NCBI GenBank assembly: GCA_963753345.1
Contig: CAVWBU010000027.1
Coordinates: 218,447 to 282,446, forward strand
DNA: 64,000 bases
Origin: an uncultured Fibrobacterota bacterium
Lineage (GTDB): Bacteria > Fibrobacterota > Chitinivibrionia > Chitinivibrionales > FEN-1185
Reading direction: 5' to 3'
Part shown: positions 30,396-64,000 of the stretch, piece by piece
How the letters are laid out: each line of letters starts with the position of its first letter
Position numbering within the stretch: the stretch's first letter is position 1
Program-made: the position numbers and the translations under genes
The notes under the pieces: model-generated
Databases searched by the model: none
Seen by the model: the letters and a program-made list of their open reading frames with translations, nothing else
What the model was told of the DNA's origin: nothing

Positions 30396-31439
30396 TCAAG
30401 GTCCGCTGCAGCCGAGCGCGTCGACGACCTCCTGCAGGTCGCCGTTCATGACTGCGTCAAGTTTGTAGAGCGTCAAGTTGATTCTGTGATCGCTCAGGCG
30501 GTTCTGCGGGAAGTTATAGGTTCGGATTTTTTCGCTCCTGTCGCCGGAGCCGACCATGCTCTTGCGGTTCGCGGATTCCGCGGCCTGTTTTTGAGACGTA
30601 CGCAAATCAAACAGCCGTGAGGACAGGATCTTCATGGCACGTGCCTTGTTCTTGTGCTGCGACTTTTCATCCTGGCATATTACGGTAAGGCCCGTCGGAA
30701 GGTGCACGATTCTCACCGCGGATTCCGTCTTGTTCACGTGCTGGCCGCCCTTGCCGCCGGCCCGGAAAACGTCAATCCGGATTTCAGACGGGTCGATATT
30801 CACTTCGACGTCGTCCGCCTCGGGGAAAACCGCCACCGAAGCGGCTGAGGTGTGAATGCGCCCCTGCGCTTCGGTCTGCGGCACGCGCTGAACACGGTGA
30901 ACGCCGGATTCATACTTGAAAGCGCCGTATGCTTCCTCGCCTTTGACAAGAAAAATAATCTCCTTGACTGCGCCGATATCGCCGTAGCTGGAGCTGAAGA
31001 CTTCAATGGCCCACCCTTTATTTTCAATATAATGAGTGTACATTCTGTAAAGATCGGCTGCAAAAATCCCCGCCTCGATTCCCCCCGTGCCGGCCCGGAT
31101 CTCCACAAGCGCATTCTTGAAATCGTTTGGGTCTTTGGGCACGAGGTAGTACTTGATTTTCTGCTCGATTTTCGGAATGTCCATTCCGATCCGTTCGTTT
31201 TCTTCCTTCGCGAGCTGCCGCAACTCGGGGTCGGTCTCGGTTGCGAGCAATTCAATGTTCGCGGCAATGGCCTCCACCAAGGCAAGATACCTCTGGTATT
31301 CCGGCATGTTCCGCTTAAGAACATTGTATTCCCTGCCCAGTTTTTCGAGCAGGCCAGGATTGGACGAAACGGCAGCGGAGGCGAGTTCCTCTTCGAGCGC
31401 TTTCTGGCGTGAGATAAGCTCCCGGATTCTTTCGATCAT
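30396..31439 (-). CDS. prfA: Peptide chain release factor 1
   Basis: Start at ATG 31439 ([12 protein letters not shown]). GGQ motif [20 protein letters not shown]1-type tripeptide region [14 protein letters not shown]. Confidence 0.9.
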
Positions 31440-38687: not shown

Positions 38688-40803
38688 TCAGAACTTGCAT
38701 TTCAAGACGACATACTGAGAAAGGCCGGGCAGCGGCCTTTGAAAATCGTAATCCTTAACGTTAAGGTAATTTTCGATCCTGTAGGAAAGGTCGAAATGCT
38801 CCCCTATCGTACAACCGATGCTCGCATTCAATTGAGGCCTGGGTTGCTGTATGGGCGGCAGGTTGTCAAAGTTGGTAAAATAGCTGGAGACGAGTCGGGC
38901 CGAATGACCTGCATACCAATTCCTGTACATGAATTTGATGTTGAGATTATCCGTGAATCGCGGCTGCAGCGGTTCGTCCTTCCCATTCCATGATGAAAAC
39001 GTGTCGGAATGCATAATATTTTCCATGTAGGTCATCGAATTGACGACCGACAACCATGGAAACGGGCTCAGGGTGGCGTCGTTTTCCAGCCCCCACGCAT
39101 TGACATCGGACACATTCGTCGGCGTAAACATGGTTGAATGCCCTATGTAAACTATTTTGTCTTTTGTTGTGCTCGCGAATACAGCTCCGGATACGGCGAT
39201 CCATGATTTAACAAAAGAGAACCCCAGGTCGCCTTCCAGCCGGGTCTCGGGACGGAGGGCCGGATTACTTGTTATATGCGCTCCTTCTGAATACTTTTCG
39301 GAAAATCCCGGACTTCGACTACTGTATTGAATACTCGCCAAAATGCCAAGACAATCAAACGGCTGGTAACGTAATTCGGAAAAACCACCGGGAAACCCTT
39401 TCTTTGTTAACCCGCCCCCCGACACCGGGCCAACCAAAGTCATGCTGTCGTTTGTTGAATCAATCTCGTATCGGTAAAGACCGCAAAGTCGTGCCGTTAC
39501 CTCCTTGCAAAAATAGACCTTAGCCTCCATCCCCACCTTCCCGGTAAGGCGGAAATAATGCGGTTGTACTTGCCCCGCTGGCGACAGGAGATTGTCGTCG
39601 TCAAACCCGTCATAGCTCGCGTCAAGGATTCCCTTAAGGAGCAGATGATTTCCGATGCCGTCTTGAAGTATGCCTTCCAATGATCCGTACGGTTGATTGA
39701 AATTGTGCAAGTCGGGCGTCGTGAGATAATATTTTTGGAACCTCCGGAATCCCTCATCCCGGGTTTGCCCTGCTGCCGTTACGGTCATGGAAATGTTTTG
39801 AGCAAGCGCCGCAGAATATGATTCCAGCAATGAAACTCTGCTTTCCCTCACCGTTCCGTCGTTGAGACCCGCCGTTGGGAAGTAATAGATGCCTTCATCC
39901 GTAATGAGCATCGAAAATTGCGAAGTAAGTTTGCTGCGGTTGTCAATCTTGAACGTGTTTTCGTACATTGAAGACAATGTCGAAAAGAAGTTGTTATCCA
40001 TGGTTTTCTGAGAATCATCGGTTGCCACGCTCGGCCCAAGCGTCACAACGCGGTCGGTATACGGATAATTATTGTCCGCCCACCCGTAATTTATGGAAAA
40101 GCGATGGGTCATCCGACCCGAAGTTTTGCTGACTATTGCATTGCCTTCGCGATACCCGAATGAACCGACTTCCAGGGAGGCGGCCGTTGCATCGCCGGCG
40201 CCGTCCGAGGTGAGATTAATGACCCCTGCGGCATTGGCTCCGAAAATCTCAATGGGTGGGGTGGTTTTGTAAATGGTGATGCTTTGCAAGGCGGAAATCG
40301 GAATCTTTGAGATATCAACCGCATTCCCGGTTGAACCATTTAAGGGTATTCCGTCAAGATAGACCTGCACCTGACTCGGCGAGCTGCCCCGGATCGACAC
40401 GTCTGAATAATGGCCGAAACCGCCTCTGTCGCAGATGAACACGCCGGAAACGGTTTCGAGCACCGATTGCAAGTCTACGTATTTGCCCGAAAAGTCCTTT
40501 GCATCCACGATCACTGTTGAAGGGGTATACTCCCTGATACTCTTGCCGGTAACAACCATTTTGTCAATGACGACGCCGGAATCGGAAGTCCGTGCCGGTC
40601 TCGGGATACTGTGGCTTGGAATTGGAGGGCTTAGCATCTTTCGGCGGGGAATTTATCGTGTTGGCGTCGGGATTTGAAATCGAACCCGGAGATTGTGCAG
40701 GCTGGGCAACACCAGTGCTATCCGTTCCCATGGTCAGCGAATCGGATTTCGCTTCCGCAAATACACAAGAGCACAAGCAAATCAACACGAATAGGATGCG
40801 CAC
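38688..40803 (-). pseudogene. TonB-dependent receptor (BtuB-like) with signal peptide and plug/barrel in different frames
   Basis: The barrel ORF 38688..40637 ends in ..YVVLKCKF and begins at the TonB-box-like DSGVVIDKMVVTG, but its frame is closed by TAA at 40653-40655. The signal peptide (V)RILFVLICLCSCVFAEA and a P/S/T/Q linker are in another frame (GTG 40803 to stop 40564). Confidence 0.65.
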
Positions 40804-40892
40804 AGATCGGAATTCCTTGACCCCATCCCTCGGGGATCGTCGGTACAAACGCGAAAATGAATGTTCAGGTAGGTCTCCTGGCTTCCCCAAAG

Positions 40893-41032
40893 ATCATGCC
40901 GGCCTTCCCATTCCGCTTTCGGAACAGTGGCTGAGGCTACATTGCCCTTTGCTTTTCGCAACGGGCCGGGGTCACAGTGGCGGGTCCGCTCCCGATTTTA
41001 ACGGGATTCCCTTGGCACCTGGACATGAGAAA
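40893..41032 (-). promoter_or_regulatory. Cobalamin (B12) riboswitch
   Basis: Minus strand reads GGTGCCAAGGGAATCCCGTTAAAATCGGGAGCGGACCCGCCACTGTGA ... AGCCACTG ... GGGAAGGCCGG. This covers the conserved core and the B12 box, directly upstream of the receptor. Confidence 0.9.
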
Positions 41033-41117
41033 GAACTGCAATAGAATTTAATAAAGATTCGGTGAAGAGGCAAGGAAAAACAGCTGGAAATACCCGGTCA
41101 ACGAGTCTTCCCCGTCA

Positions 41118-42142: not shown

Positions 42143-42556
42143 CCTGCTGGCATCCCCCGTTCGTCTCGATACAGCCCGTGCTCCGCCCAGGCCACTCGAC
42201 GAACGGTGTACCGTCCCGCCGGTCATCGAGTAGACGCTTTAGGGTCGTATCGAGATGCCGGCCACCCCCGTTCGTCTCGATACAGCCCGTGCTCCGCCCG
42301 GGCCACTCGACGAACGGTGTACCGTCCCGCCGGTCATCGAGTAGACGCTTTAGGGTCGTATCGAGATGCCGGCCACCCCCGTTCGTCTCGATACAGCCCG
42401 TGCTCCGCCCAGGCCACTCGACGAACGGTGCACCGTCCCGCCGGTCATCGAGTAGACGCTTTAGGGTCGTATCGAGATGCCGGCCACCCCCGTTCGTCTC
42501 GATACAGCCCGTGCTCCGCCCGGGCCACTCGACGAACGGTTACCGCCCCGAGAAAT
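42143..42556. repeat. Tandem array, 111-nt unit, about 3.7 copies, each with conserved inverted repeats
   Basis: Unit starts at 42154, 42265, 42376 and 42487, with 2-3 substitutions among copies. IR CCGTTCGTC-32 nt-GACGAACGG within each unit. GTATCGAGA/TCTCGATAC pairs across unit junctions. Confidence 0.9.
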
Positions 42557-42871: not shown

Positions 42872-42996
42872 CCGCCCGACGAGTGCCGCTCGCCTCGATA
42901 CATTCCTCCGGAACACTCGGCGAGCGGTATTCGACGAACGAGCTACTTCCCCGCCGGTCATCGAGTAGACGCTTTAGCGTCGTATCGAGATGCCGG
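42872..42996. repeat. Diverged extra copy of the 111-nt unit
   Basis: Keeps the hairpin with compensatory changes (CCGCTCGCC-24 nt-GGCGAGCGG, 42886-42927). The 3' half is almost identical (CCGCCGGTCATCGAGTAGACGCTTTAGCGTCGTATCGAGATGCCGG). Confidence 0.75.
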
Positions 42997-44187
42997 CACC
43001 CGGCCCAAATCCAATTCGCCTGCAAACGCGCGCTGACTGAGGGAAGAATAGAGGTTTTCGAGGGAGGTGAGGCTTTGGGTGTAGAGGGATTTGAGGGATT
43101 CGAGTTTGAGGACGAGGGAGGAGAAATTTTTCTGGAGCGAGAGAGGGGGAATCGGAACAAATATTTTTTCCATTGCGTCTGTATCGAATTTCTTTGTTCC
43201 ATGACCAGCCGTTGTGATTGCCGCAAGAATCTGACGATCCATATTGTCTACACAGTTCTTTAGATAATGTACTGTGACTTCCTTGACAGGAAGTATGGCC
43301 TTCATGTCCTGATTGATGGAAACGTCAACGGTGTTTATTGCAGTTGGAAAGGTATGCGCCAAGATCATTCCGCGAACTACAATAAGCAAATGACCTGAAC
43401 CTATCTTTTTGAGATTTGTTTCGTCAAATACTTTTTCAGAGAGGTAGTCTTGCGCCTTTGAAATATATGGTACCTTCATATCCTTTGGGCTAATCCAGGG
43501 AAACTTTCCAATCCAGAAATCATTTCGTTCTTTACTTGGTGTACCACCGCTGATGAATGTGCCAACCTCATGCATTGGAAGTGTCTTCCACCCCTTCTCA
43601 TTCCTCACCGGGTCCCCAAACATCTCCAGAAACGCGCTCTTCGCCAATTCATCCAGCGCCTTGATGCTCTCTTTGCGTTTGGCAATCAGCTTTTCCGCGC
43701 GGGTGAGAAGGGCGGCGATGCGGATTTGGTCGGCGAGCGATTCAGGAAGGGCAATTCTTATTTGGGCCACATCCGAGGGATACAAATGGATGCCTTTTAC
43801 CTTTGACTTTAGCCATTTCAGGCCTTGCGGTGATTTGATGAACTGGTTAACAAAATCCTTATCCGCCTTTATTGGTCTAATTATCAACCATTCTCCTGTG
43901 GCAATCACACCGTCTATGGCTTCAGGTACTAGCGCGGTCTTGCTGCCAACGTAAGCAGAATTATGGGCAGCATTCAATACAATCGTATCACCTGTGCGCA
44001 ATCTTTTGTTTTCAAATCTCCTATAGAAGTCTGCATCAACGAACGATTCAAACAAGCCCTTGAAATTACCATTCTCGTCAATGTCACGTATTTTTAAAAT
44101 TGGAAGCCCCGAAGACCTTTGCTCGTTTTTTGAGGGCGTTTTGCCATTGAAAACATTTGCAACAGTGCTTAGGAGTTCCTTCTTCAT
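42958..44187 (-). CDS. hsdS: Type I restriction-modification specificity subunit
   Basis: 409 aa with two target-recognition halves separated by conserved helices (..IAALLTRAEKLIAKRKESIKALDEL.. / ..SLYTQSLTSLENLYSSLSQRAFAGEL). ATGA overlap with hsdM. Confidence 0.9.
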   Translation of the reverse strand: MKKELLSTVANVFNGKTPSKNEQRSSGLPILKIRDIDENGNFKGLFESFVDADFYRRFENKRLRTGDTIVLNAAHNSAYVGSKTALVPEAIDGVIATGEWLIIRPIKADKDFVNQFIKSPQGLKWLKSKVKGIHLYPSDVAQIRIALPESLADQIRIAALLTRAEKLIAKRKESIKALDELAKSAFLEMFGDPVRNEKGWKTLPMHEVGTFISGGTPSKERNDFWIGKFPWISPKDMKVPYISKAQDYLSEKVFDETNLKKIGSGHLLIVVRGMILAHTFPTAINTVDVSINQDMKAILPVKEVTVHYLKNCVDNMDRQILAAITTAGHGTKKFDTDAMEKIFVPIPPLSLQKNFSSLVLKLESLKSLYTQSLTSLENLYSSLSQRAFAGELDLGRVPASRYDAKASTR

Positions 44188-50087: not shown

Positions 50088-50310
50088 GCGGAAATCTCCC
50101 TGAATATCCGGTAAAATTCATCGTCCAGCACCACGGTTTGCCCATCTTCGCTATATGCAACTTCCAACGGTCGACCCTCGTAAGCCGTTTCGGTCCTCTG
50201 CGGGAAAGCGAAGGAAACGCCGCATCCTTCAGAATCAAAATAGTATTTACCGTGAGGTCAAGGCGAGGGCGTGAGAGGTGAGGTCAATGGTCAGGAGCAC
50301 TACCGAGGAC

Positions 50311-50368
50311 GGCAGTGGCACACTATTGTGATTATTGATCACACGGGGCACCCGTGCGCCAAGATTCT
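50311..50368. repeat. Copy 1 of a ~57-nt module found immediately 3' of three different ORFs
   Basis: GGCAGTGGCACACTATTGTGATTATTGATCACACGGGGCACCCGTGCGCCAAGATTCT. Compare 58500-58556 and 61491-61548. Confidence 0.75.
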
Positions 50369-54417: not shown

Positions 54418-54789
54418 TCACCCCGCAATCCTCCCCATCTCCTCCTCAATAATCTTCCCCAGCACTTTCAGCGGCACCGGTTTTCCCAGCACGGTCACGT
54501 TGAGCGCCTTCATTTCCTTTTCCGCAATTTCCGGAACAAACCCTGAGAGCAACACTTTCCTCACGTGGGCGGGCGCGGCCGCGGCGAGTTGCATGCCGTC
54601 AATATATGGCATCCTGTAGTCGGTTACAAGAAGATCGATGGGATTGTTCTGCACGAAATCGCGCGCGGTTTGGGCATTGGTGAAGCTATGGACTTGCGCC
54701 TGGGGAGCTTCAAGGTTTATGAAGCTTGTCAGGATGTCTGTGATGAACTGTTCGTCGTCCACGACCACTACTTCGAGTTCGAGTTTCAT
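54418..54789 (-). CDS. Single-domain (CheY-like) response regulator, orphan
   Basis: VVVVDDE, LLVTDYRMPYIDG and LGKPV motifs. No kinase gene is nearby. Confidence 0.8.
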   Translation of the reverse strand: MKLELEVVVVDDEQFITDILTSFINLEAPQAQVHSFTNAQTARDFVQNNPIDLLVTDYRMPYIDGMQLAAAAPAHVRKVLLSGFVPEIAEKEMKALNVTVLGKPVPLKVLGKIIEEEMGRIAG

Positions 54790-54858
54790 AATTCTCCTTG
54801 GAGGCGGCTGCCTTTGGCGCCGGAAGCGGACATGTTCATTATACTATAAAGGGGTTCT

Positions 54859-54887
54859 CAAGAACGGAACCTTATGTTCCGTTCTTG
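54859..54887. promoter_or_regulatory. Perfect 12-bp-arm palindrome next to a TATAAT upstream of the orphan receiver gene
   Basis: CAAGAACGGAAC-cttat-GTTCCGTTCTTG. The minus strand continues ..GAGAACCCCTTTATAGTATAATGAAC about 50 nt before the ATG at 54789. Confidence 0.35.
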
Positions 54888-54903
54888 CATGTGCAGATAG
54901 CAA

Positions 54904-55152
54904 GAATCTGGGCGTTCCCCCGCTTCGCATGAAGACACAAGACTTGGGCGCCCCGCCGAGTACGGCGGCGGCCCTCGCTCCGGTCCACCCCTTCGGGTGC
55001 TTCCAAGGGTCGTCGGCCTTCGGCCTCCGGCCGCCACGGCCCAATGCCGCGGCAGCGGCGGGTCCGGGCGTCACCGCGTTCCAACGCGGCCTCCGTTCCG
55101 GCCTGGCGCTGGGCATAGGACACTACCCAACGTCAATAGTCGCCTGCGCATA
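54904..55152. repeat. GC-rich structured repeat X
   Basis: Shares its 5' end GAAT(C)TGGGCGTTCCC and its 3' ~75 nt (hairpin, CCTCC, CGCTGGGCA.AGG.ACA.TACCCA..GTCAATA...GC.TGCGCA) with 58098-58296. Confidence 0.75.
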
Positions 55153-55370
55153 TTTGGTTTGTCTTGGCCTTCCTGCCGCCATCAGTGGCGCAGCCGCGCA
55201 CGGAGTTGTTGAGAACGAGTTGTTTTTGGTTTTTCTTATCGCCATCAGCGCCGCTCCATGGGACCGGCGGATTGGTCCGCTCGCGTCGTTCAAGGCCGGC
55301 ATCTTTTGAGGATTGGAAAAATGTCCTGCCGGACGCGTTCGCGAGCGGCCTGCCGGCCACATGGGTATCG

Positions 55371-55647
55371 GCGGCGCTGCAGGCGCGGCATGGGGATGCA
55401 AGGGGTGCTTGCTGAAGAGCACCCCTTGCTCGGGGTTCGGGGCTGAAGGCCCCGACCCGTTTGTACGCGGCCCGCAGGCCGCGGGACCGGGCGGAGCTGC
55501 AGGCGCGGCACGGGGGTCCAGGGGGCGCTTGCTGCAGACAAGGCAAACGACACAATATCTGGCGCGGAGCGCCAACTACTTCTCCTTGGGGAACGGAAGT
55601 GACAACGCCCCTTGGTCGGGGTTCGGGGGCGACCCTCCGACCCCGTT
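55371..55647. repeat. Two copies of a double-hairpin module, the second with a ~70-nt insert in its first loop
   Basis: Copy 55371-55462 has GCAAGGGGTGC-loop-GCACCCCTTGC then CGGGGTTCGGGGC..GCCCCGACCCG. Copy 55491-55647 has CCAGGGGGCGC..GCGCCCCTTGG then CGGGGTTCGGGGGC..CCGACCCCG. Confidence 0.75.
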
Positions 55648-55711
55648 CTACCGCAGCGCGAGGGTGCCGGGCGCCTCGGATTTATTGAGCCAGTCGAGAA
55701 GGGGCATTTGT
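55648..55711 (-). pseudogene. Stub of a gene 5' end (MPLLDWLNKSEAPGTLALR*), duplicate of 57841-57880
   Basis: ATG at 55707. 37 of about 39 nt are identical to the start of the methyltransferase fragment at 57876. It runs into repeat DNA after 19 codons. Confidence 0.5.
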
Positions 55712-55775
55712 CCTATTTATTCCTGCTGGTTTGCGAACCTGGATACTTGTTTCCCTTGCGAGGTCCGCGAAAGAT

Positions 55776-56216
55776 TTACAGATGCTTTACCGTAAGGCCG
55801 CTAAATTGCTTTTGCAGGTATTCGGCAGCCAATCGCCTGTGGCATTTGTCGGGCGTTGACTCGGAGCACAAGAGACATGACATATTAAGTTGTTCAATCG
55901 ACATCGTTTTGTGTGGAGCCCTCAGGTTAATCAGCGCATTGTACTTCGTTTCGTATTCGGCCCAGGAGATCAGCTTCTTATGATAGCCATCCAGCAGTTC
56001 TTTTGATGGCGCGAAATCCGGGATATGCCTGTATGAACAATGACAAACGACCTCAAGGAAAAACTGCAAGTCCTCCCTTTTTGAATATCCTGCAAGTTGA
56101 GAGGAGTTGTTAAGCCTTACGTCAATTAATTGAACAACACGATTTTGATTGAGGATAGTGAAAAACGTGCGGGCAGGCTTCTTAGTAAACCCTATTGTGT
56201 ACAGTACTGCTTCCAT
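55776..56216 (-). CDS. DUF488-family protein (short form)
   Basis: MEAVLYTIGFTKK N-terminus and LLCSESTPDKCHRRLAAEYL (C-x-E..CHR motif). Confidence 0.75.
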   Translation of the reverse strand: MEAVLYTIGFTKKPARTFFTILNQNRVVQLIDVRLNNSSQLAGYSKREDLQFFLEVVCHCSYRHIPDFAPSKELLDGYHKKLISWAEYETKYNALINLRAPHKTMSIEQLNMSCLLCSESTPDKCHRRLAAEYLQKQFSGLTVKHL

Positions 56217-56820
56217 TGCTTGCTTCCTCGGGATTAGAGAATGATTCATCTACATAAGCGATGGAATCGCCTTGAATGCGATACGCCTCCTCAACAAGCT
56301 GGGCGTGAGTCCTAAGAAGATCTGGTCCGTCAAGGTGAACCATTGAGAGAAGACGTTCTTCAATATGGTCTTGAGGTTCGATATCTCCATCGCACAGTAT
56401 GTGTTCTATTTCCTTAACATCATTCCGCAAGTTCTTGCAAATCAGAATGGTCCTATGGCACATTATAGGGTCTTTCTCGGCGCACATCAGAGCGATGTTA
56501 TGATTTAAAAGGCCATCCACAATGCGCTTGAGACCTTTTCTGAAGAGCGGGTGTCTGGAAATAAGAGCATAATCGGCCTTACCATCGATGTAGCATTCAG
56601 GTGCACTAATCCTCGCTCCACATTCATTACCGAGGAAAACATAGTAGATTCCGTTATCGCGCAGAAATGCTTTTATGGTTTCACGATTGTAGTCGGGCTT
56701 AAATTTGCTGAATGGTTGTGAGCGGACATCCGCAACAGCTGAAATACCGTATTGTCTAATCGCATGCAAGAAATCTGCATTGGTGAAGCAGGAATAGCCA
56801 ATTGTGAAGAGCTTGTGCAT
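56182..56820 (-). CDS. DUF488-family protein (long form with a ~60-aa C-terminal extension)
   Basis: MHKLFTIGYS, VADVRSQPFSK, and LMCAEKDPIMCHRTILI. Confidence 0.75.
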   Translation of the reverse strand: MHKLFTIGYSCFTNADFLHAIRQYGISAVADVRSQPFSKFKPDYNRETIKAFLRDNGIYYVFLGNECGARISAPECYIDGKADYALISRHPLFRKGLKRIVDGLLNHNIALMCAEKDPIMCHRTILICKNLRNDVKEIEHILCDGDIEPQDHIEERLLSMVHLDGPDLLRTHAQLVEEAYRIQGDSIAYVDESFSNPEEASNGSSTVHNRVY

Positions 56821-56829
56821 GCTTGCGGT

Positions 56830-57531
56830 CTATTTCTCTATGATTGTGGCTGCCAACTTATAGTGATACCCGTTGAAGGGCTTCGTCAAACTGATGCAGA
56901 GCAAACAACCCTTTGACTTTAGAAGTACCTTTCGCGCCGGACTACCCGGTCCTGGAAACGGCTTGAAGTACTTGATGTCAATATCCGGGTCAGTAATGGC
57001 AAGATCAAAATCCGACCCGCCATAGGAAAATAGTGCACGCCGTCGTTTCTGGTCATGGCCTTCAAATTCGTTGTAAATTGTTGATATTTGCATGCGAAAA
57101 TTCGCAGGTTCCACGATGCAAAGAGATGACTTTGATTTTTGTGAAAGGAAGAAGGTTGATGAAACCCTATCGGACATCCTACGCGGTTCAATCCAAAGAT
57201 TCTGAGGATGTTCAGTAAGAACAGCTAGTGATTCTTTTCGCAAAGTCCCGATTCTTTCCCAGCGGCCGGGCGAAATCAGCCAGTTCTCCGGCTGGGTTTC
57301 GGACGGGGCAGGTTCAATGCAGGGAAGTTTGACGATGTCCAATATGCCGGGAGTGTTACCGTTTGAATATGAAATGTCATGAAGTGACAGAGCGCCATCA
57401 TCATGTTGTGAGACCGGTCTTATCCAGACCCCAGCCACAAGACGGCCCGTTTTCCGGATAATTTCCTTTCCTGCCACGCAGTATTGTCCGTGCTTGACAG
57501 ACCTTGCAAGAATCACTATTTCCTTTTGCAT
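56830..57531 (-). CDS. Hypothetical 233-aa protein, first gene of the DUF488 cassette
   Basis: N-terminus MQKEIVILARSVKHGQYCVAGKEI..GVWIRPVS. Its stop lies 10 nt before the next ATG. It may match a dual-OB-fold family I recall only vaguely. Confidence 0.55.
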   Translation of the reverse strand: MQKEIVILARSVKHGQYCVAGKEIIRKTGRLVAGVWIRPVSQHDDGALSLHDISYSNGNTPGILDIVKLPCIEPAPSETQPENWLISPGRWERIGTLRKESLAVLTEHPQNLWIEPRRMSDRVSSTFFLSQKSKSSLCIVEPANFRMQISTIYNEFEGHDQKRRRALFSYGGSDFDLAITDPDIDIKYFKPFPGPGSPARKVLLKSKGCLLCISLTKPFNGYHYKLAATIIEK

Positions 57532-57635
57532 TTAGCCACCCGCCACGACAGAAGATAATGGCGCCTCAGAGAAAAATGCATAATGCAGCTGTCAAAAGCA
57601 CGATTTTGGTGCAAGGTTTCTACATCCAGTTGCCG

Positions 57636-57876
57636 CTACAGAACATGTAATGTCTTTCGCCTCGGTTTTTCCGCGCGGGGCTCGTCCACCTGCTCGATAA
57701 CCTGGAACGGCAATACAATGTTCGTAACTTCGTTGGTCTTGCCGTTCCACACAAGCTCGACCTCGCGCTTGTCTTCGAACAACAGGAAACGGTACTTGTC
57801 CGGAAGCGGCTTGTCCGCTTCGATGCGGCGGCTTTGAGGGCTTCGGATTTATTGTGAGCCAGTCGAGAAGGGGCAT
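57636..57876 (-). pseudogene. N-terminal fragment of an adenine-specific DNA methyltransferase (type III Mod / stand-alone type), frameshifted and truncated
   Basis: ATG 57876 gives MPLLDWL... A second frame reads IEADKPLPDKYRFLLFEDKREVELVWNGKTNEVTNIVLPFQVIEQVDEPRAEK then stops. The W-x-GK ... LPFQ-x-IE ... EPR pattern is typical of the N-terminus of such methylases, and no catalytic part follows. Confidence 0.5.
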
Positions 57877-58097
57877 TTGTGAAGAGGTCTCCTATTGCGG
57901 CTTCAGAAAGGTGCGACTTTGAACGATCAATCTTAAAATAGGATTTGAGAAGGGGGGTGGCGTGGGATTTCGGAGAACCAGAGTCGAATGCCGTGGGAAT
58001 AATGATGCGATAACTAAATAAATCAAATTCAATTTTGGATTGCTGAGCCGGTGCGGCGCGGATGTACCCGTGGCAAGACCAGCAACAAGATAAGAAA

Positions 58098-58296
58098 GAA
58101 TTGGGCGTTCCCCTCCCCCTCGACTTCGCTCGGGGTCGGGTCGGCCGTCCTTACGGTCTCGGCTTCGCCTCGGGCTGCCTGCCACATAGGCCCTGCGGGC
58201 CGTGGTCAGGCAGCACCGTGCTCCAGCACGGCCTCCAGTCCTGCCTAACGCTGGGCAGAGGGACATTACCCATCTGTCAATAACTGCTGCGCAAAT
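58098..58296. repeat. GC-rich structured repeat X' (direct copy of X)
   Basis: GAATTGGGCGTTCCCC ... CCGTGCT-cc-AGCACGG-CCTCCAGTCC..CGCTGGGCAGAGGGACATTACCCATCTGTCAATAACTGCTGCGCAAAT. Confidence 0.75.
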
Positions 58297-58426
58297 ACAA
58301 ATGAGGAAATGTCTTTAGCAATCCACATTCCGCATTCCGCAATCTACAATTCTTCCCATCTCCCCCGCGATCAGTTCCGCCTGCTTCATCCTTGATTGTG
58401 CGCCGACGGTAAAGAATACTGTTGAG

Positions 58427-58556
58427 GCCTGCACTGAGCCCTTCGACAGCGCTTCGTCAAGCTCAGCACGAGGCTCAGGACAAGCTTCGTCGAAGTGACG
58501 ACAGTGGCACACGGTTGGGATTCTCGGTGATGCAACTCACCCGTGCGGATGCTAGT
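58427..58556. repeat. Composite repeat: GAGGCCTGCACTGAG, a variable hairpin, then copy 2 of the 57-nt module; overlaps the helicase stop codon
   Basis: CTTCGAC..GTCGAAG inverted repeat, then GTCGAAGTGACGACAGTGGCACACGGTTGGGATTCTCGGTGATGCAACTCACCCGTGCGGATGCTAG. Confidence 0.7.
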
Positions 58557-61284
58557 GTGCATACTGGTTCAGGATGGATTTGAGTCTATGATCCTCACCG
58601 GATTCGTTCGTTTTGAATCTATAGAGCGGAATTCCACACAGCGCAAACGCTTTGTTTTTGATCGTGTCCCGTACCGATTGTTCGATATTTTGCTCGTGAT
58701 GCCTTATCCCATCCACTTCAAGAGCAAATAATGGTTTCCTGCTTGTGCTGTTATAAAACAAAAAGTCCACATGCGTCCACGGATGGGTTATGTACTGCTT
58801 TTCCCTCTGATCCAGTCCTGTTAAATCGGTGATGAGTTTCCCCACTCTCGCATGCATTGTAAATGAAATGTATGGATAGTTCTTAAGCATGGCCGATATG
58901 AGTTGGTTCATCAGGAGCTCGGTAAAGTGTTCCCGGCTTTTTTTCCGATATTGCGCAATCAATTCATCCCTGTGTTCACCATAGAGCTTATCGAATATCG
59001 ATGTGATTACCGATTCCCTCGTTACCGAATGGCCATACAGATACTCGATGTAATCGATAAGGTCTTTTATGGTGTTGTTTGATGAATGATAAACCTTGTC
59101 CGATACGACAATGGTGACCTTTTTGATTCCCCTCGATATTGCCACATTCAAAAGTTCTTTATTGGTTATGAAATCATACAATCGGTTCTCAGTTGCAATA
59201 TCACTTTTGTCCAATGAGTTAACCACAAACGACAAAACGACTTCTTCCTTCTGCCGGCCCTGATATTTATGGACGGTGTCGGCTTCGATTCCAGTCTCTT
59301 TGAATTTTTTACGAATCATGTCCGCCTGACATCTGAACGGCGTTATCACACCGGTGTCTTTTAATGGGGCGCCCTGCAACAAAACGCCTATTTCATCAAT
59401 CTCCCGCTCATTGTATTGACCCCTGCCATTGGGGTTTCTTCTTGCATGATTGCCTGGAACGGTTTTGATGACGTTTAAATGTATACCATCGTTTTTCGTC
59501 ATGACAATCAATTCATTATCGTAGAACATTTTATTGCAGAAACCTATGATGTCGGGAGCACAGCGATAATGTTCTTTGAGCAAAGTCGTCGGTACGTGGG
59601 GAATCGCGGTTTTCACGGACCTAAGGATGGAATTGGATTCATACCGGAAGCAGAAGTCTATACCGAATTTTTTCGACAACTCCCTCGAATGTGGAACCAA
59701 ACTTTCGTCTTCGATTTCCTGGAGTTGTTTTGAGTCACCGACGACCACAAGGTTTCTTGCGCAACTGATGGCCAAAATACTGCTCAGCAGGTCACCCTGG
59801 GACGCTTCATCGATGATCAGATAGTCGAGCAGAAGTCTTTGCCCGACATTGTTAAGCAACGAATGCGACGTACTTAAAATGACAGGATAGCGCTTTACAA
59901 AGTGAGCGAAATCCGTTTTGTAGTTTTTAGGAGTGAATGATGCCGTATCTTCGTTCTTATATCGCTGATACAGCAAACCGGAAAAAACCCGGAGGGACAG
60001 ATTTTGAAGTTCTTCCTTGAGCTCGGCACCTTTGTTCTTGACAATATATTTTTGATGTTCTTTAATCAGGTTCCTAATCTCACGCCTTTTCGCAACATAG
60101 AACAATCTTTCCGCCGCATCCAGAAGTTTCCCATTGGCTTCCCTCCTGACCCGGGTTTTGAATTTTCTTTTTATCAGGTAACGTGCAAACACTCCGAGCG
60201 GCTTGCCCGATTCGAGTTTGATTTTCAACTTCAGATATTCTTCCGACGCAAGATCGGGTTTTATTTGACAACCTTCCGTCATGCCGGCCCTGAGATGTTC
60301 CAATTCTTTTTCGAGCTCGGCCAGCTCAACCCTCTTTTTTGCCACCACGTTCTCGGCTTCATGCACTTGTTTTAAAATGCTTCCGAGTTTGTCGATTCTC
60401 GCGCCGATGGTTTCCGGGAGGGGTTTGAAATCGCCGTCAAGGAAGGCGGTCAGTTCACTCTCGCCCGCCGACGAGAAAAAAGCGTCAACGCGTTCTTTGC
60501 TGCCTAACAACGCAACGAAGAACGCGTGCTTTTCCTCGTTGAGTTTGTCATACACATTTTGGATCGCAGCGTTATTGTTCGATACAACGGCGCACGTATA
60601 TCCGTTTGCCACGATATTGGCGATCAGGTTCAATATCGTCTGTGTTTTTCCCGTTCCGGGTGGGCCTTCGATGACGGATATGTTATTGCCCAATGCATTT
60701 TCGATTGCCGCTCTTTGACTTTGATTGAAACTGAACGGGAGTATGATAGAACACTGCTTCCCGATGTCCCGGCAACGTCCCTTGAAGTAGTCAAAAAGAC
60801 ACGAATTCTCGCTAAAGGAAATTCTCTTGAAGTTTTTCGAAAGATAATGCAGCGGAGATTTTTCTTCCGCTATTTCCAATCCCTTTTCCGCGAGCGCGGT
60901 ATAATATTGCCGGATCTTTCTGTATCTATCGCTTTCGAACCGGACCTGATCGGTCAGGAAGTCTTTATCTCCGATATATACGCGATAGTATCCTTTTTCA
61001 AATTCGTCAACCCGGACCGCATCTACGACTTTATGGTCGACAAGGACCTCAATATTTTCAAGCGGGACCGTTCTCAGGCAGTCGAGGACATTAACGCGAT
61101 CTTGCGTGTAAAAATACTTTTGCTTGCCCCCTCTGAAGTATATGGCATAACCTGTAAATCTGCCATGCGAAAAGGCCTCATACATTGCCGATATTTGCTT
61201 TGTTTTGTCTTCCCATGCACCCGTCTCACATTTACAGAGAAGAATTCTCCTCTTTTGCGGGTCGATATTGACTCTTTCAGACAA
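58552..61284 (-). CDS. SF1 (Upf1/DNA2-like) helicase fused to a C-terminal DUF2726/Vsr-like nuclease-fold domain
   Basis: TTG start after GAGGAG. Walker A GPPGTGKTQT, motif II LIIDEASQ. C-terminus HPWTHVDFLFY..LFALEVDGIRHH. The N-terminal ~190 aa are unassigned. Confidence 0.8.
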   Translation of the reverse strand: MSERVNIDPQKRRILLCKCETGAWEDKTKQISAMYEAFSHGRFTGYAIYFRGGKQKYFYTQDRVNVLDCLRTVPLENIEVLVDHKVVDAVRVDEFEKGYYRVYIGDKDFLTDQVRFESDRYRKIRQYYTALAEKGLEIAEEKSPLHYLSKNFKRISFSENSCLFDYFKGRCRDIGKQCSIILPFSFNQSQRAAIENALGNNISVIEGPPGTGKTQTILNLIANIVANGYTCAVVSNNNAAIQNVYDKLNEEKHAFFVALLGSKERVDAFFSSAGESELTAFLDGDFKPLPETIGARIDKLGSILKQVHEAENVVAKKRVELAELEKELEHLRAGMTEGCQIKPDLASEEYLKLKIKLESGKPLGVFARYLIKRKFKTRVRREANGKLLDAAERLFYVAKRREIRNLIKEHQKYIVKNKGAELKEELQNLSLRVFSGLLYQRYKNEDTASFTPKNYKTDFAHFVKRYPVILSTSHSLLNNVGQRLLLDYLIIDEASQGDLLSSILAISCARNLVVVGDSKQLQEIEDESLVPHSRELSKKFGIDFCFRYESNSILRSVKTAIPHVPTTLLKEHYRCAPDIIGFCNKMFYDNELIVMTKNDGIHLNVIKTVPGNHARRNPNGRGQYNEREIDEIGVLLQGAPLKDTGVITPFRCQADMIRKKFKETGIEADTVHKYQGRQKEEVVLSFVVNSLDKSDIATENRLYDFITNKELLNVAISRGIKKVTIVVSDKVYHSSNNTIKDLIDYIEYLYGHSVTRESVITSIFDKLYGEHRDELIAQYRKKSREHFTELLMNQLISAMLKNYPYISFTMHARVGKLITDLTGLDQREKQYITHPWTHVDFLFYNSTSRKPLFALEVDGIRHHEQNIEQSVRDTIKNKAFALCGIPLYRFKTNESGEDHRLKSILNQYAH

Positions 61285-61435
61285 AGATGTATCTCCTCAA
61301 AGATCAATAGGCCCAATTTTATTCAGTTTCCATGCAACCGCCCTCCGTGTCCGTCTATAATCTCGCCATCTGACGCAATGCACAACGGAGTCTTGAAGGC
61401 TGCCTGGGCGACAACAAACGGGAAGGGGCACTGCC

Positions 61436-61548
61436 GAGGCCTGCACTGAGCAGCGCGCTGCACTGAGCTTCGCCGAAGGGTCGAAGTGATGGCAGTGGCA
61501 ATCGATTGTGATTCATTATAACACGAGGCACCCGTGCGACAAAATCTG
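61436..61548. repeat. Composite repeat containing copy 3 of the 57-nt module
   Basis: GAGGCCTGCACTGAGCAGCGCGCTGCACTGAGCTTCGCCGAAGGGTCGAAGTGATGGCAGTGGCAATCGATTGTGATTCATTATAACACGAGGCACCCGTGCGACAAAATCT. Confidence 0.75.
61515..61542 (-). promoter_or_regulatory. Sigma70-like promoter candidate inside repeat copy 3
   Basis: Minus strand reads TTGTCG-16 nt-TATAAT, about 230 nt upstream of the helicase start. Confidence 0.3.
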
Positions 61549-63743: not shown

Positions 63744-64000
63744 ATATCCGCCTCCTGTCATCGTAGGTATCTTGGCCAGCTTCAAGCGAGTTCATCACCA
63801 CCTCATGATTGCCCTTTGTTTTGCCGTCTGTGGAAAACAGCTTCTTGTCCGTGGGCCGACCCGAATAGAGCCTGTATACCAAATTGCCACCTTCACGCTC
63901 CTTGCTTGCATATAGCAAGTAGTCCGCGCCGATGGAGGCTCCGACCGTGCTGTTGTGCGTTACAACAACAACTGGCATTGATTTCGAGATGTCTCTAATA
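63724..64000 (-). CDS. C-terminal part of an ABC/SMC-type (AAA_15/21-like) ATPase; the gene continues beyond the window
   Basis: PVVVVTHNSTVGASIGADYLLY looks like the H-loop region of such ATPases. The ORF is open to the window edge. Confidence 0.45.
   Translation of the reverse strand, partial: IRDISKSMPVVVVTHNSTVGASIGADYLLYASKEREGGNLVYRLYSGRPTDKKLFSTDGKTKGNHEVVMNSLEAGQDTYDDRRRIYEATKD

Follow-up and report, generated by a model that had tools for sequence, protein, structure and literature searches.

Layout of the locus

We analyzed a 64-kb stretch of DNA (the window, by which we mean the whole stretch) from a Chitinivibrionales (Fibrobacterota) bacterium. From about 43000 to 64000, the window holds a co-directional defence island on the minus strand, with a G+C content of 0.44-0.50 compared with 0.53-0.59 in the rest of the window. 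The genes of this island run in the order type I restriction-modification (R-M), OLD-family ATPase-nuclease, DUF2130, DuOB-DUF488, and superfamily 1 (SF1) helicase with DUF2726; an AlbA_2/Schlafen-like gene accompanies the type I R-M genes. Two stretches of non-coding sequence, X and X', lie in spacers of the island: X' in the spacer past the helicase unit and X in the spacer past the DuOB-DUF488 unit, with a receiver-domain gene, DUF488/DuOB, and the helicase as their neighbors. Between them are two 5' stubs of a methylase gene, hairpin modules, and a three-gene DUF488 cassette (DuOB and two DUF488 genes), all as listed in a prior sequence-only reading of this DNA. We report that X and X' are diverged paralogs of one GC-rich, structured non-coding element of about 180-200 nt, which had not been catalogued before and is specific to this lineage of wetland Chitinivibrionales. 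The element belongs to a family that has a conserved, compensated multi-helix fold, is non-coding, sits at unrelated sites, and varies in presence between related species.

Two full copies and a truncated third

A direct reading of positions 54500-58700, together with a repeat finder, confirmed the homology of X and X', which point the same way, approximately 3.2 kb apart, at the positions where the sequence-only reading had placed them. The sequence TGGGCGTTCCCC is present exactly twice in the window, once in X and once in X'. A 53-nt block is also 77% identical between them, with further shared blocks beside it that end in GTCAATA...CTGCGCA, and the shared 3' block that had been described before was recovered by this repeat comparison. 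When re-registered (X 54938-55160 against X' 58094-58304), they align with 76% column identity over about 200 nt (MAFFT). Their interiors had been described as different; the sequences do differ, but they are not unrelated, as the same helices are found in the same positions.

X (core 54940..55137; all features of the two copies are on the plus strand) is a full-length copy of what we term subtype A (GGGCGCC...GGCGC; 142.9 bits with model R2). X' (58097..58279) is a full-length copy of subtype B (GGGCGTT...AACGC; 138.4 bits with R2). The closing helix, P1, pairs GCGCC at 54948..54952 with GGCGC at 55105-55109 in X, and GCGTT at 58105..58109 with AACGC at 58247-58251 in X' (alignment pairs 12-223 and 13-222). 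X contains an extra hairpin between P3 and P4, CACCCCTTCGGGTG (54985-54998), while the inner P5b helix of X' is re-registered yet fully compensated (UGCCAC / GUGG-U-CA; direct reading). The covarying hairpin of the sequence-only reading is P7, CCGCGU-UCCA-ACGCGG at 55074..55089 in X and CCGUGC-UCCA-GCACGG at 58216..58231 in X'. Two pairs of its stem indeed differ between the copies, each in a compensatory manner (one C-G to U-A, the other U-A to C-G), and the hairpin is better drawn with 6 bp and a conserved UCCA tetraloop than with 7 bp and a 2-nt loop.

The most conserved segment of X spans 55090..55131 and consists of CCUCCGUUCCGGCCU, the 3' strand of P1, and UGGGCAUAGG...ACCCA; its columns are invariant or nearly so in all seven sequences of the family sample defined below. 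A 3' extension follows, GTCAATA-N5-CTGCGCA at 55132..55150 in X and GTCAATA-N4-CTGCGCA at 58276..58293 in X'. In the form GTCAAKA-N3-5-GCCTGCG(G)CA, this extension was found only in X, X', and one relative, L062 (~2268-2290), and was absent from the relatives L021, L022, L024, and L036. It could be diagnostic of a sub-lineage of the element or of a neighboring module.

Because MAFFT repeatedly placed the 5' end of X' on an internal TTGGGCGCCCC at 54944 and not at 54904, we regard X as composite. The counterpart of X' within X begins at approximately 54940, and at 54939 the full copy has a 5' end of its own, AAGACTTGGGCGCCCC. The shared blocks of the two copies are real, but the 5' end previously assigned to X (GAATCTGGGCGTTCCC, from 54904) belongs to a truncated extra copy and not to the full one. 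This stub (TGGGCGTTCCCCCGCTTCGC, 54903..54931, plus strand) is a 29-nt piece of a subtype-B copy directly upstream of the full X copy. From the A-rich leader it runs through GCGTT, the 5' strand of P1, into P2, of which it has the 5' half and the loop, and it ends after GCTTCGC. Compared with the 5' end of L024, 19 of 20 positions are identical (TGGGCGTTCCCCCGCTT[C/T]GC), after which the two diverge.

Relatives in wetland metagenomes

One metagenome scan with the pattern TCCANNNNGGCCTCCN{10,14}CGCTGGGCA returned 45 loci. Most of these (39/45) were chance matches in coding sequence, predominantly ilvD. The remaining six (L022, L021, L039, L062, L024, and L036) were true relatives, scoring 74-102 bits with a two-sequence model, and all were on Joint Genome Institute (JGI) contigs of peat or wetland type. 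L021 and L039 are one locus in two samples, resulting in five independent loci and a family sample of seven distinct sequences (X, X', L021, L022, L024, L036, and L062). We then built a covariance model, R3, from the five relative loci only, without X or X' and with RNAalifold's own structure, and ran it against the whole window with filters off. R3 matched X' at 123.6 bits (E = 1e-32) and X at 103 bits (E = 4.6e-27), and the next match in the window had E = 0.09. Because R3 was built without X and X' and nevertheless matches both strongly, we consider them bona fide family members, with a similarity that chance does not explain; they are the only full copies in the 64 kb.

Other searches did not extend the family. 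A scan of the genome collection with the 3' block (GCTGGGCAN{2,3}GGACANTACCCA), which is variable within the family, gave one chance match in a beta-galactosidase-like gene. Pattern scans of viral contigs gave chance or coding matches only, and blastn of X, X', and L024 against plasmids and phages gave nothing. The relatives of the gcv locus, which represent redundant core genome, carried no extra copies. A full-text literature search for core 12-13-mers found unrelated primers only.

GcvPB of the window is 72-83% identical to proteins named Chitinivibrionales or Chitinispirillaceae, and the relatives of the GH30 glycosidase at L021 also include Chitinivibrionales. In tetranucleotide composition, the window, L021, and L024 correlate at 0.87-0.89.

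A shared multi-helix fold

The element is a self-contained intergenic unit of about 175-200 nt. It has a purine- and A-rich leader at its 5' end and, in most relatives but not in X or X', ends with a U-rich trailer. P1 (GCGYY/RRCGC) closes the whole unit and is fully paired in all seven sequences; its two final pairs take the form C-G in X, L022, and L036, whereas X', L021, L062, and L024 have U-A. Inside P1 are P2, a variable hairpin of 6 to about 20 bp; P3 (GGCC...GGUC); and P4, a small UUCG-type hairpin whose stem is GGCC/GGCC, GGGC/GCCC, GCC/GGC, or GGC/GCC. These are joined by a long arm that runs from P5 (GCYGCC/GGCRGC) through P5b (CGGCCC/GGG-U-CCG, with a bulged U) to a variable tip hairpin, P6, of 3-16 bp. 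P7, with the consensus CCGCGC-UCCA-GCGCGG, is 100% paired in the seven sequences, and its pairs 194-203 and 196-201 (alignment A9) are preserved through two-sided changes. On the 3' side of P7 comes the nearly invariant CCUCCAGUCCKGCCU, then the P1 3' strand RRCGC, and then UGGGCAKARG...RCCA. The sequences fall into two subtypes, A (GGGCGCCCCGC; X, L022, and L036) and B (GGGCGUUCCCC; X', L021, L062, and L024), and the window carries one full copy of each.

To compare this fold with chance pairing, we slid the pairing partners by 1-3 columns in the MAFFT alignment. Paired cells made up 91.7% at the true register compared with 34-46% in the slid controls, and 12 two-sided pair changes were observed compared with 1-4 in the controls; 0 of 500 shuffles reached the observed values, figures that are to be read with the fold having been derived from the same seven sequences that test it. 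An earlier alignment gave similar support. Three independent observations agree with the fold: RNAalifold recovered P1-P7 from the five relatives alone; X and X', which lie outside the training set of R3, satisfy the R3 fold with few non-canonical pairs; and X' preserves P5b in its re-registered, compensated form.

Two further ideas about the fold were dropped. An outer closing stem, P0, formed by the A-rich leader and the U-rich trailer, gave -6.4 kcal/mol for cognate and -6.5 kcal/mol for non-cognate pairings. Assignment of the functional strand by folding energy was also abandoned, since the two strands did not differ.

Comparison with known families and coding potential

The sequence-only reading had been unable to match X and X' to transfer-messenger RNA (tmRNA), RNase P, signal recognition particle (SRP), or 6S RNA motifs, and searches with Rfam 15 and ARAGORN agree with this. 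At the gathering threshold, Rfam 15 matched the window only at a cobalamin riboswitch (40851-41037). Rfam scans by E value of positions 54700-58500 and of L022, L039, and L036 gave chance-level matches only (E ≥ 0.25, far below gathering), so that no known Rfam family accounts for X or X'. ARAGORN predicted 0 tRNA or tmRNA genes in the window.

We also considered several classes of element by their hallmarks. A protein-coding gene was rejected, as indels of 1, 6, and 9 nt between X and X' break every frame; moreover, substitutions in the stems compensate one another and, in the one frame that the copies share, are non-synonymous. A retron RNA was rejected because no reverse transcriptase was seen immediately downstream, the neighbors being receiver, DUF488/DuOB, helicase, GH30, GntR, and similar genes. 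Insertion sequence ends of the IS200/IS605 type and omega RNA were rejected because the neighboring open reading frames (ORFs) have no TnpA, TnpB, or IscB domain and there is no HEARO match. An attC site was rejected because the RYYYAAC core is found in X (ACCCAAC) but not in X' (ACCCATC) or the relatives (TACCATT, TGCCAAT, and similar). The ORFs scanned around X and X', and those in the final 1.6 kb of the window, which ends at 64000, showed no integrase. As for miniature inverted-repeat transposable elements (MITEs), no element-specific terminal inverted repeats were found, since the A-rich and U-rich flanks pair equally well within and between copies; copy number in the 64 kb examined amounts to two copies at 76% identity and one stub. 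Ends of Logan contigs at 58125 and 55650 were not used as evidence of repeats because coverage dips in GC-rich sequence explain them equally well.

Genomic contexts and the DUF488 cassette

Each relative is a single copy at its locus and none brackets a cassette. X-like sequences in relatives occur at five independent loci, singly and with the fold kept, and mark no cassette boundary. Their neighborhoods are unrelated, including GH30 glycosidases, a GntR regulator, an epimerase, a nitroreductase, and a protein with a type IX secretion system (T9SS) C-terminal sorting domain; even the GH30 glycosidases beside different relatives are only 28% identical to each other. Copies are located either 20-100 nt downstream of a stop codon, in the gap between convergent genes, or immediately before a divergent start. 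In L021, the GH30-GntR spacer is 481 nt long and holds the element. Six contigs of a sister species (L069-L074) have the same gene order, with GH30 at 82% identity, a 5-nt spacer, and no element in the locus. Because the GH30-GntR site is empty in the sister species, the element has been gained or lost between related genomes and is not a syntenic housekeeping gene.

The flanks of the element are compositionally skewed: A makes up 53% of the 15 nt upstream and T makes up 43% of the 15 nt downstream, compared with 23% and 25% in the window. These A-rich and T-rich flanks resemble, at the level of composition, the signature of a bidirectional terminator. By eye, X, X', and L062 each have CAAGATA/CAATA-like words on either side.

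The DuOB-DUF488-DUF488 genes are directly abutted by the two methylase 5' stubs (55673-55711 and 57840-57880), which form a 41-nt repeat at 92.7% identity containing a 26-nt exact repeat at 55686 and 57855 (repeat finder). The second stub runs to about 57592 and is a frameshifted N-terminus, approximately 95 codons long, of an adenine methyltransferase. Because copies of the methylase 5' end flank these genes directly, the arrangement suggests that the cassette displaced or interrupted a methylase gene. The bracketing of the cassette by X and X' looks incidental, the two being independent copies between transcription units, because the relatives are solitary, X and X' lie between transcription units, and it is the methylase stubs that touch the cassette. 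A sequence related to the stubs is also present at 31315-31353 on the other strand.

Other repeats and hairpins in the window

The hairpin modules between X and X' include two tandem GC-rich modules, M1 (55370-55489) and M2 (55490-55665), which share 49 nt at 86% identity. M1 is far more stable than shuffled sequences (z = -5.0 on the plus strand and -6.7 on the minus strand). M2 has the layout of M1 plus about 80 nt inserted into the first hairpin loop, and the stem differences between them are compensatory. M1 and M2 had no relatives among the fetched loci and no Rfam match. On the other side of X, between it and the start of the receiver-domain gene (54418-54789, minus strand), is a perfect 11-bp inverted repeat, AAGAACGGAAC-N5-GTTCCGTTCTT (54860-54886), which could be an operator or a terminator.

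A separate repeat family, 'R', has copies at 50308-50365, 58406-58554, and 61418-61545 that are 64-81% identical and contain small internal hairpins. The copies lie directly 3' of the stop codons of three minus-strand defence genes (OLD, helicase-DUF2726, and a 285-aa ORF) and are probably terminator- or REP-like. Weak similarity to 'R', including the word CAGTGGC, was seen downstream of X and of the family copies in L021 and L024. A link between X and 'R' by way of this word was dropped, as only a 7-14-mer is held in common (E = 0.03).

Elsewhere in the window, at 42145-42540 and 42916-42997, a 111-bp unit is present in three and a half tandem copies at 97-99% identity, and a diverged copy of the unit overlaps the 3' end of a putative hsdS gene. 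These repeats could be the variable specificity-subunit region of a type I restriction system. The cobalamin riboswitch at 40851-41037 (minus strand, 80.6 bits) lies upstream of a TonB-dependent receptor gene (38688-40637).

Interpretation

We tentatively favor, at somewhat less than even odds for the whole package, the reading that the X family is a lineage-specific, dispersed, structured RNA-type element that has been duplicated or mobilized and acts as inter-operon punctuation, that is, as a module at the 3' ends of genes. The target of selection would be a single-stranded fold, most probably of RNA. The units would have spread through the genome by duplication or mobilization and, once landed, may serve as very stable punctuation between operons, in the manner of a bidirectional terminator. 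On this reading, X' would end the helicase transcription unit and X the DuOB-DUF488 unit, and this would explain why the two appear to bracket the cassette. The sequence-only reading had raised a structured mobile family as one of two possibilities. That the family is structured holds up, with five independent relatives and a covarying fold; mobility is no more than plausible.

Several observations weigh against this reading. The family sample is small, at seven sequences, and the covariation in P1 and at the base of P2 partly tracks the two subtypes. The strand is ambiguous: alifold energies are equal on the two strands (-57.3 versus -57.9), single-sequence minimum free energies show no preference, and a candidate 3' hairpin proposed by RNAalifold, P9, would favor the opposite strand. 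Counts of G.U against A.C pairs are 13 to 5 for the strand as drawn, seven of the G.U pairs being one invariant P3 pair. A role in termination is challenged by a simple terminator scan, which found none at X or X', and by the lack of a clear U-tract on the plus side of either copy. In addition, seven or more helices with invariant junctions far exceed what a terminator needs. As for dispersal, the presence/absence contrast is between species and not strains, with junctions that cannot be mapped at 82% protein identity; the window holds two copies and one stub in 64 kb, while no copy lay in about 190 kb of related, though redundant, loci; and P0 lacks cognate-specific complementarity, as its energies above indicate.

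An alternative that is possible, though rather unlikely, is that the copies are free-standing genes for trans-acting small RNAs (sRNAs), or 'sibling' sRNAs, each transcribed from its own promoter on the plus strand and ending at the U-rich trailer. The conserved single-stranded C/U-rich segments (CCUCCAGUCC, the P3 loop CUCCUUCC, and the UCCA loop of P7) would then pair with purine-rich, Shine-Dalgarno (SD)-like mRNA sequences or hold a protein; this anti-SD idea is pattern-matching only. In keeping with such genes, the unpaired segments are strongly conserved while the helices are compensated. X and X' have diverged to 76% identity with the fold kept, which suggests that each copy is under selection. 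Individual relatives fit as well: the L062 element comes after the intrinsic terminator of the upstream gene, and the L024 element, whose end reads UUCUUUUUU, begins 29 nt from a divergent start codon. The plus strand also agrees with the invariant G.U in P3 and a U.G in P5 of L036, although the energies are alike on both. The promoter evidence points the other way, with no motif at a fixed distance (AAGA recurs 1-16 nt from GGGCG) and nothing upstream of X or X' in a sigma-70 scan. Neither X nor X' has a U-tract right after RCCA.

We consider it unlikely that the family is a non-autonomous mobile DNA element whose single-stranded DNA fold is recognized by a transposase or recombinase encoded elsewhere, as in REP/RAYT, IS200/IS605, or attC-like systems. 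Such an element would account for a structure equally conserved on both strands, for unrelated contexts with one orthologous site empty, for a truncated copy adjoining a full one and two subtypes in one genome, and for the CAAGATA/CAATA-like words on both sides of three copies. However, we found no cognate-specific terminal inverted repeat, no clean target duplication, and no transposase or integrase among the Pfam-scanned neighbors. The copies within the same genome, only two in 64 kb, are 76% identical with compensated stems, and such old, constrained copies are unlike a recent burst.

Two readings invoke a complex functional RNA. It is quite improbable that the family is a new class of complex functional RNA, ribozyme or ribonucleoprotein scaffold, that is confined to Chitinivibrionia and propagates as a mobile or duplicating RNA gene whose copies accumulate in variable regions such as defence islands. 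About as improbable is a new class of complex functional RNA, a ribozyme or ribonucleoprotein scaffold, that is multi-copy by chance. Such a class would be in line with the seven to nine helices, the invariant junction nucleotides, the conserved bulged U of P5b, and peripheral hairpins that vary in length and are capped by stable loops. There is a local resemblance to the core of the hepatitis delta virus (HDV) ribozyme by direct reading: a 5' helix, P1, that is able to begin with G.U, a C-rich loop before the 3' strand, and GGGCA after it. Nonetheless, an HDV-like ribozyme was rejected, as all supported helices are nested, there is no double pseudoknot and no equivalent of P4 or J4/2, and Rfam gives no HDV-type match. 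No Rfam ribozyme model reached E ≤ 1; the only one to match was Twister-sister, at E = 2.1 and on the opposite strand of X only.

The other possibility in the sequence-only reading, that X and X' are att- or attC-like recombination or packaging boundaries of a swapped DuOB-DUF488 cassette, is suggested by direct repeats 3.2 kb apart that flank a cassette inside a defence island, but it is barely credible given that the five relatives are solitary and flank no cassette, the attC core is not conserved, 180-200 nt exceeds the usual attC length, no integrase was seen in the ORFs scanned, the 41-nt stub repeats adjoin the cassette directly, and the closest DuOB homologs are only 54% identical, so that allelic replacement or synteny cannot be traced through them. 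Our favored reading of a dispersed RNA-type element and the rivals above overlap.

Likeness to known systems

Nearest in mode to the X family are the interspersed repeats of bacteria (REP/BIME, BOX, ERIC, Correia, and especially bcr). The repeats of this kind (REP/BIME, ERIC, BOX/RUP, Correia, bcr) are short intergenic sequences of 100-250 nt, often at gene 3' ends, that form stable hairpins. They are lineage-specific and vary in presence between relatives, and some are terminators or stabilizers of mRNA. The bcr repeats of the Bacillus cereus group are reported to keep their RNA structure through compensatory changes. These repeats are, however, one long hairpin, whereas the X family is multi-branched, with seven or more helices and long invariant junctions. 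It also differs in showing no terminal inverted repeats or target duplication, in its two copies and a stub in 64 kb, and in having no sequence similarity to Rfam families, plasmids, or phages.

The attC sites are likewise structured repeats in direct orientation between co-directional cassettes whose structure is kept more than their sequence. In contrast to them, the X family has unconserved core sites, about twice the usual length, no IntI seen, solitary relatives, and long invariant stretches of primary sequence. Sibling sRNAs such as Qrr, PrrF, and RsmX/Y/Z are paralogous RNAs of one genome that diverge in sequence while keeping their fold and single-stranded motifs. X and X' diverge and keep their fold in the same way, and UCC motifs on the plus strand correspond to GGA on the minus strand in loops and linkers; by direct reading there would be about five such GGA motifs, in the P7 loop, the P3 loop, and the P7-P1 linker, and multiple GGA motifs in loops are a feature of CsrB/RsmZ-type protein sponges, which act with a CsrA/RsmA protein. 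Unlike these sRNAs, the family has non-syntenic loci and is larger and more branched than is typical of them. We rate the X family as belonging among orphan lineage-specific structured non-coding elements, its distinguishing features being the branched architecture and the invariant junctions.

Significance

To our knowledge, almost no non-coding RNAs have been described from Chitinivibrionia, and a literature search on this class found no papers on non-coding RNA. For annotation, the locus urges caution: direct repeats around a cassette in a defence island do not have to be recombination boundaries, and here they are best taken as independent copies of a dispersed element. With seven or more helices, invariant junctions, and compensatory changes in about 180 nt, the fold is more complex than those of ordinary repeats or terminators, and such candidates have sometimes proved to be a ribozyme or the RNA of a ribonucleoprotein. 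The models and the seven sequences suffice to seed a family-wide search.

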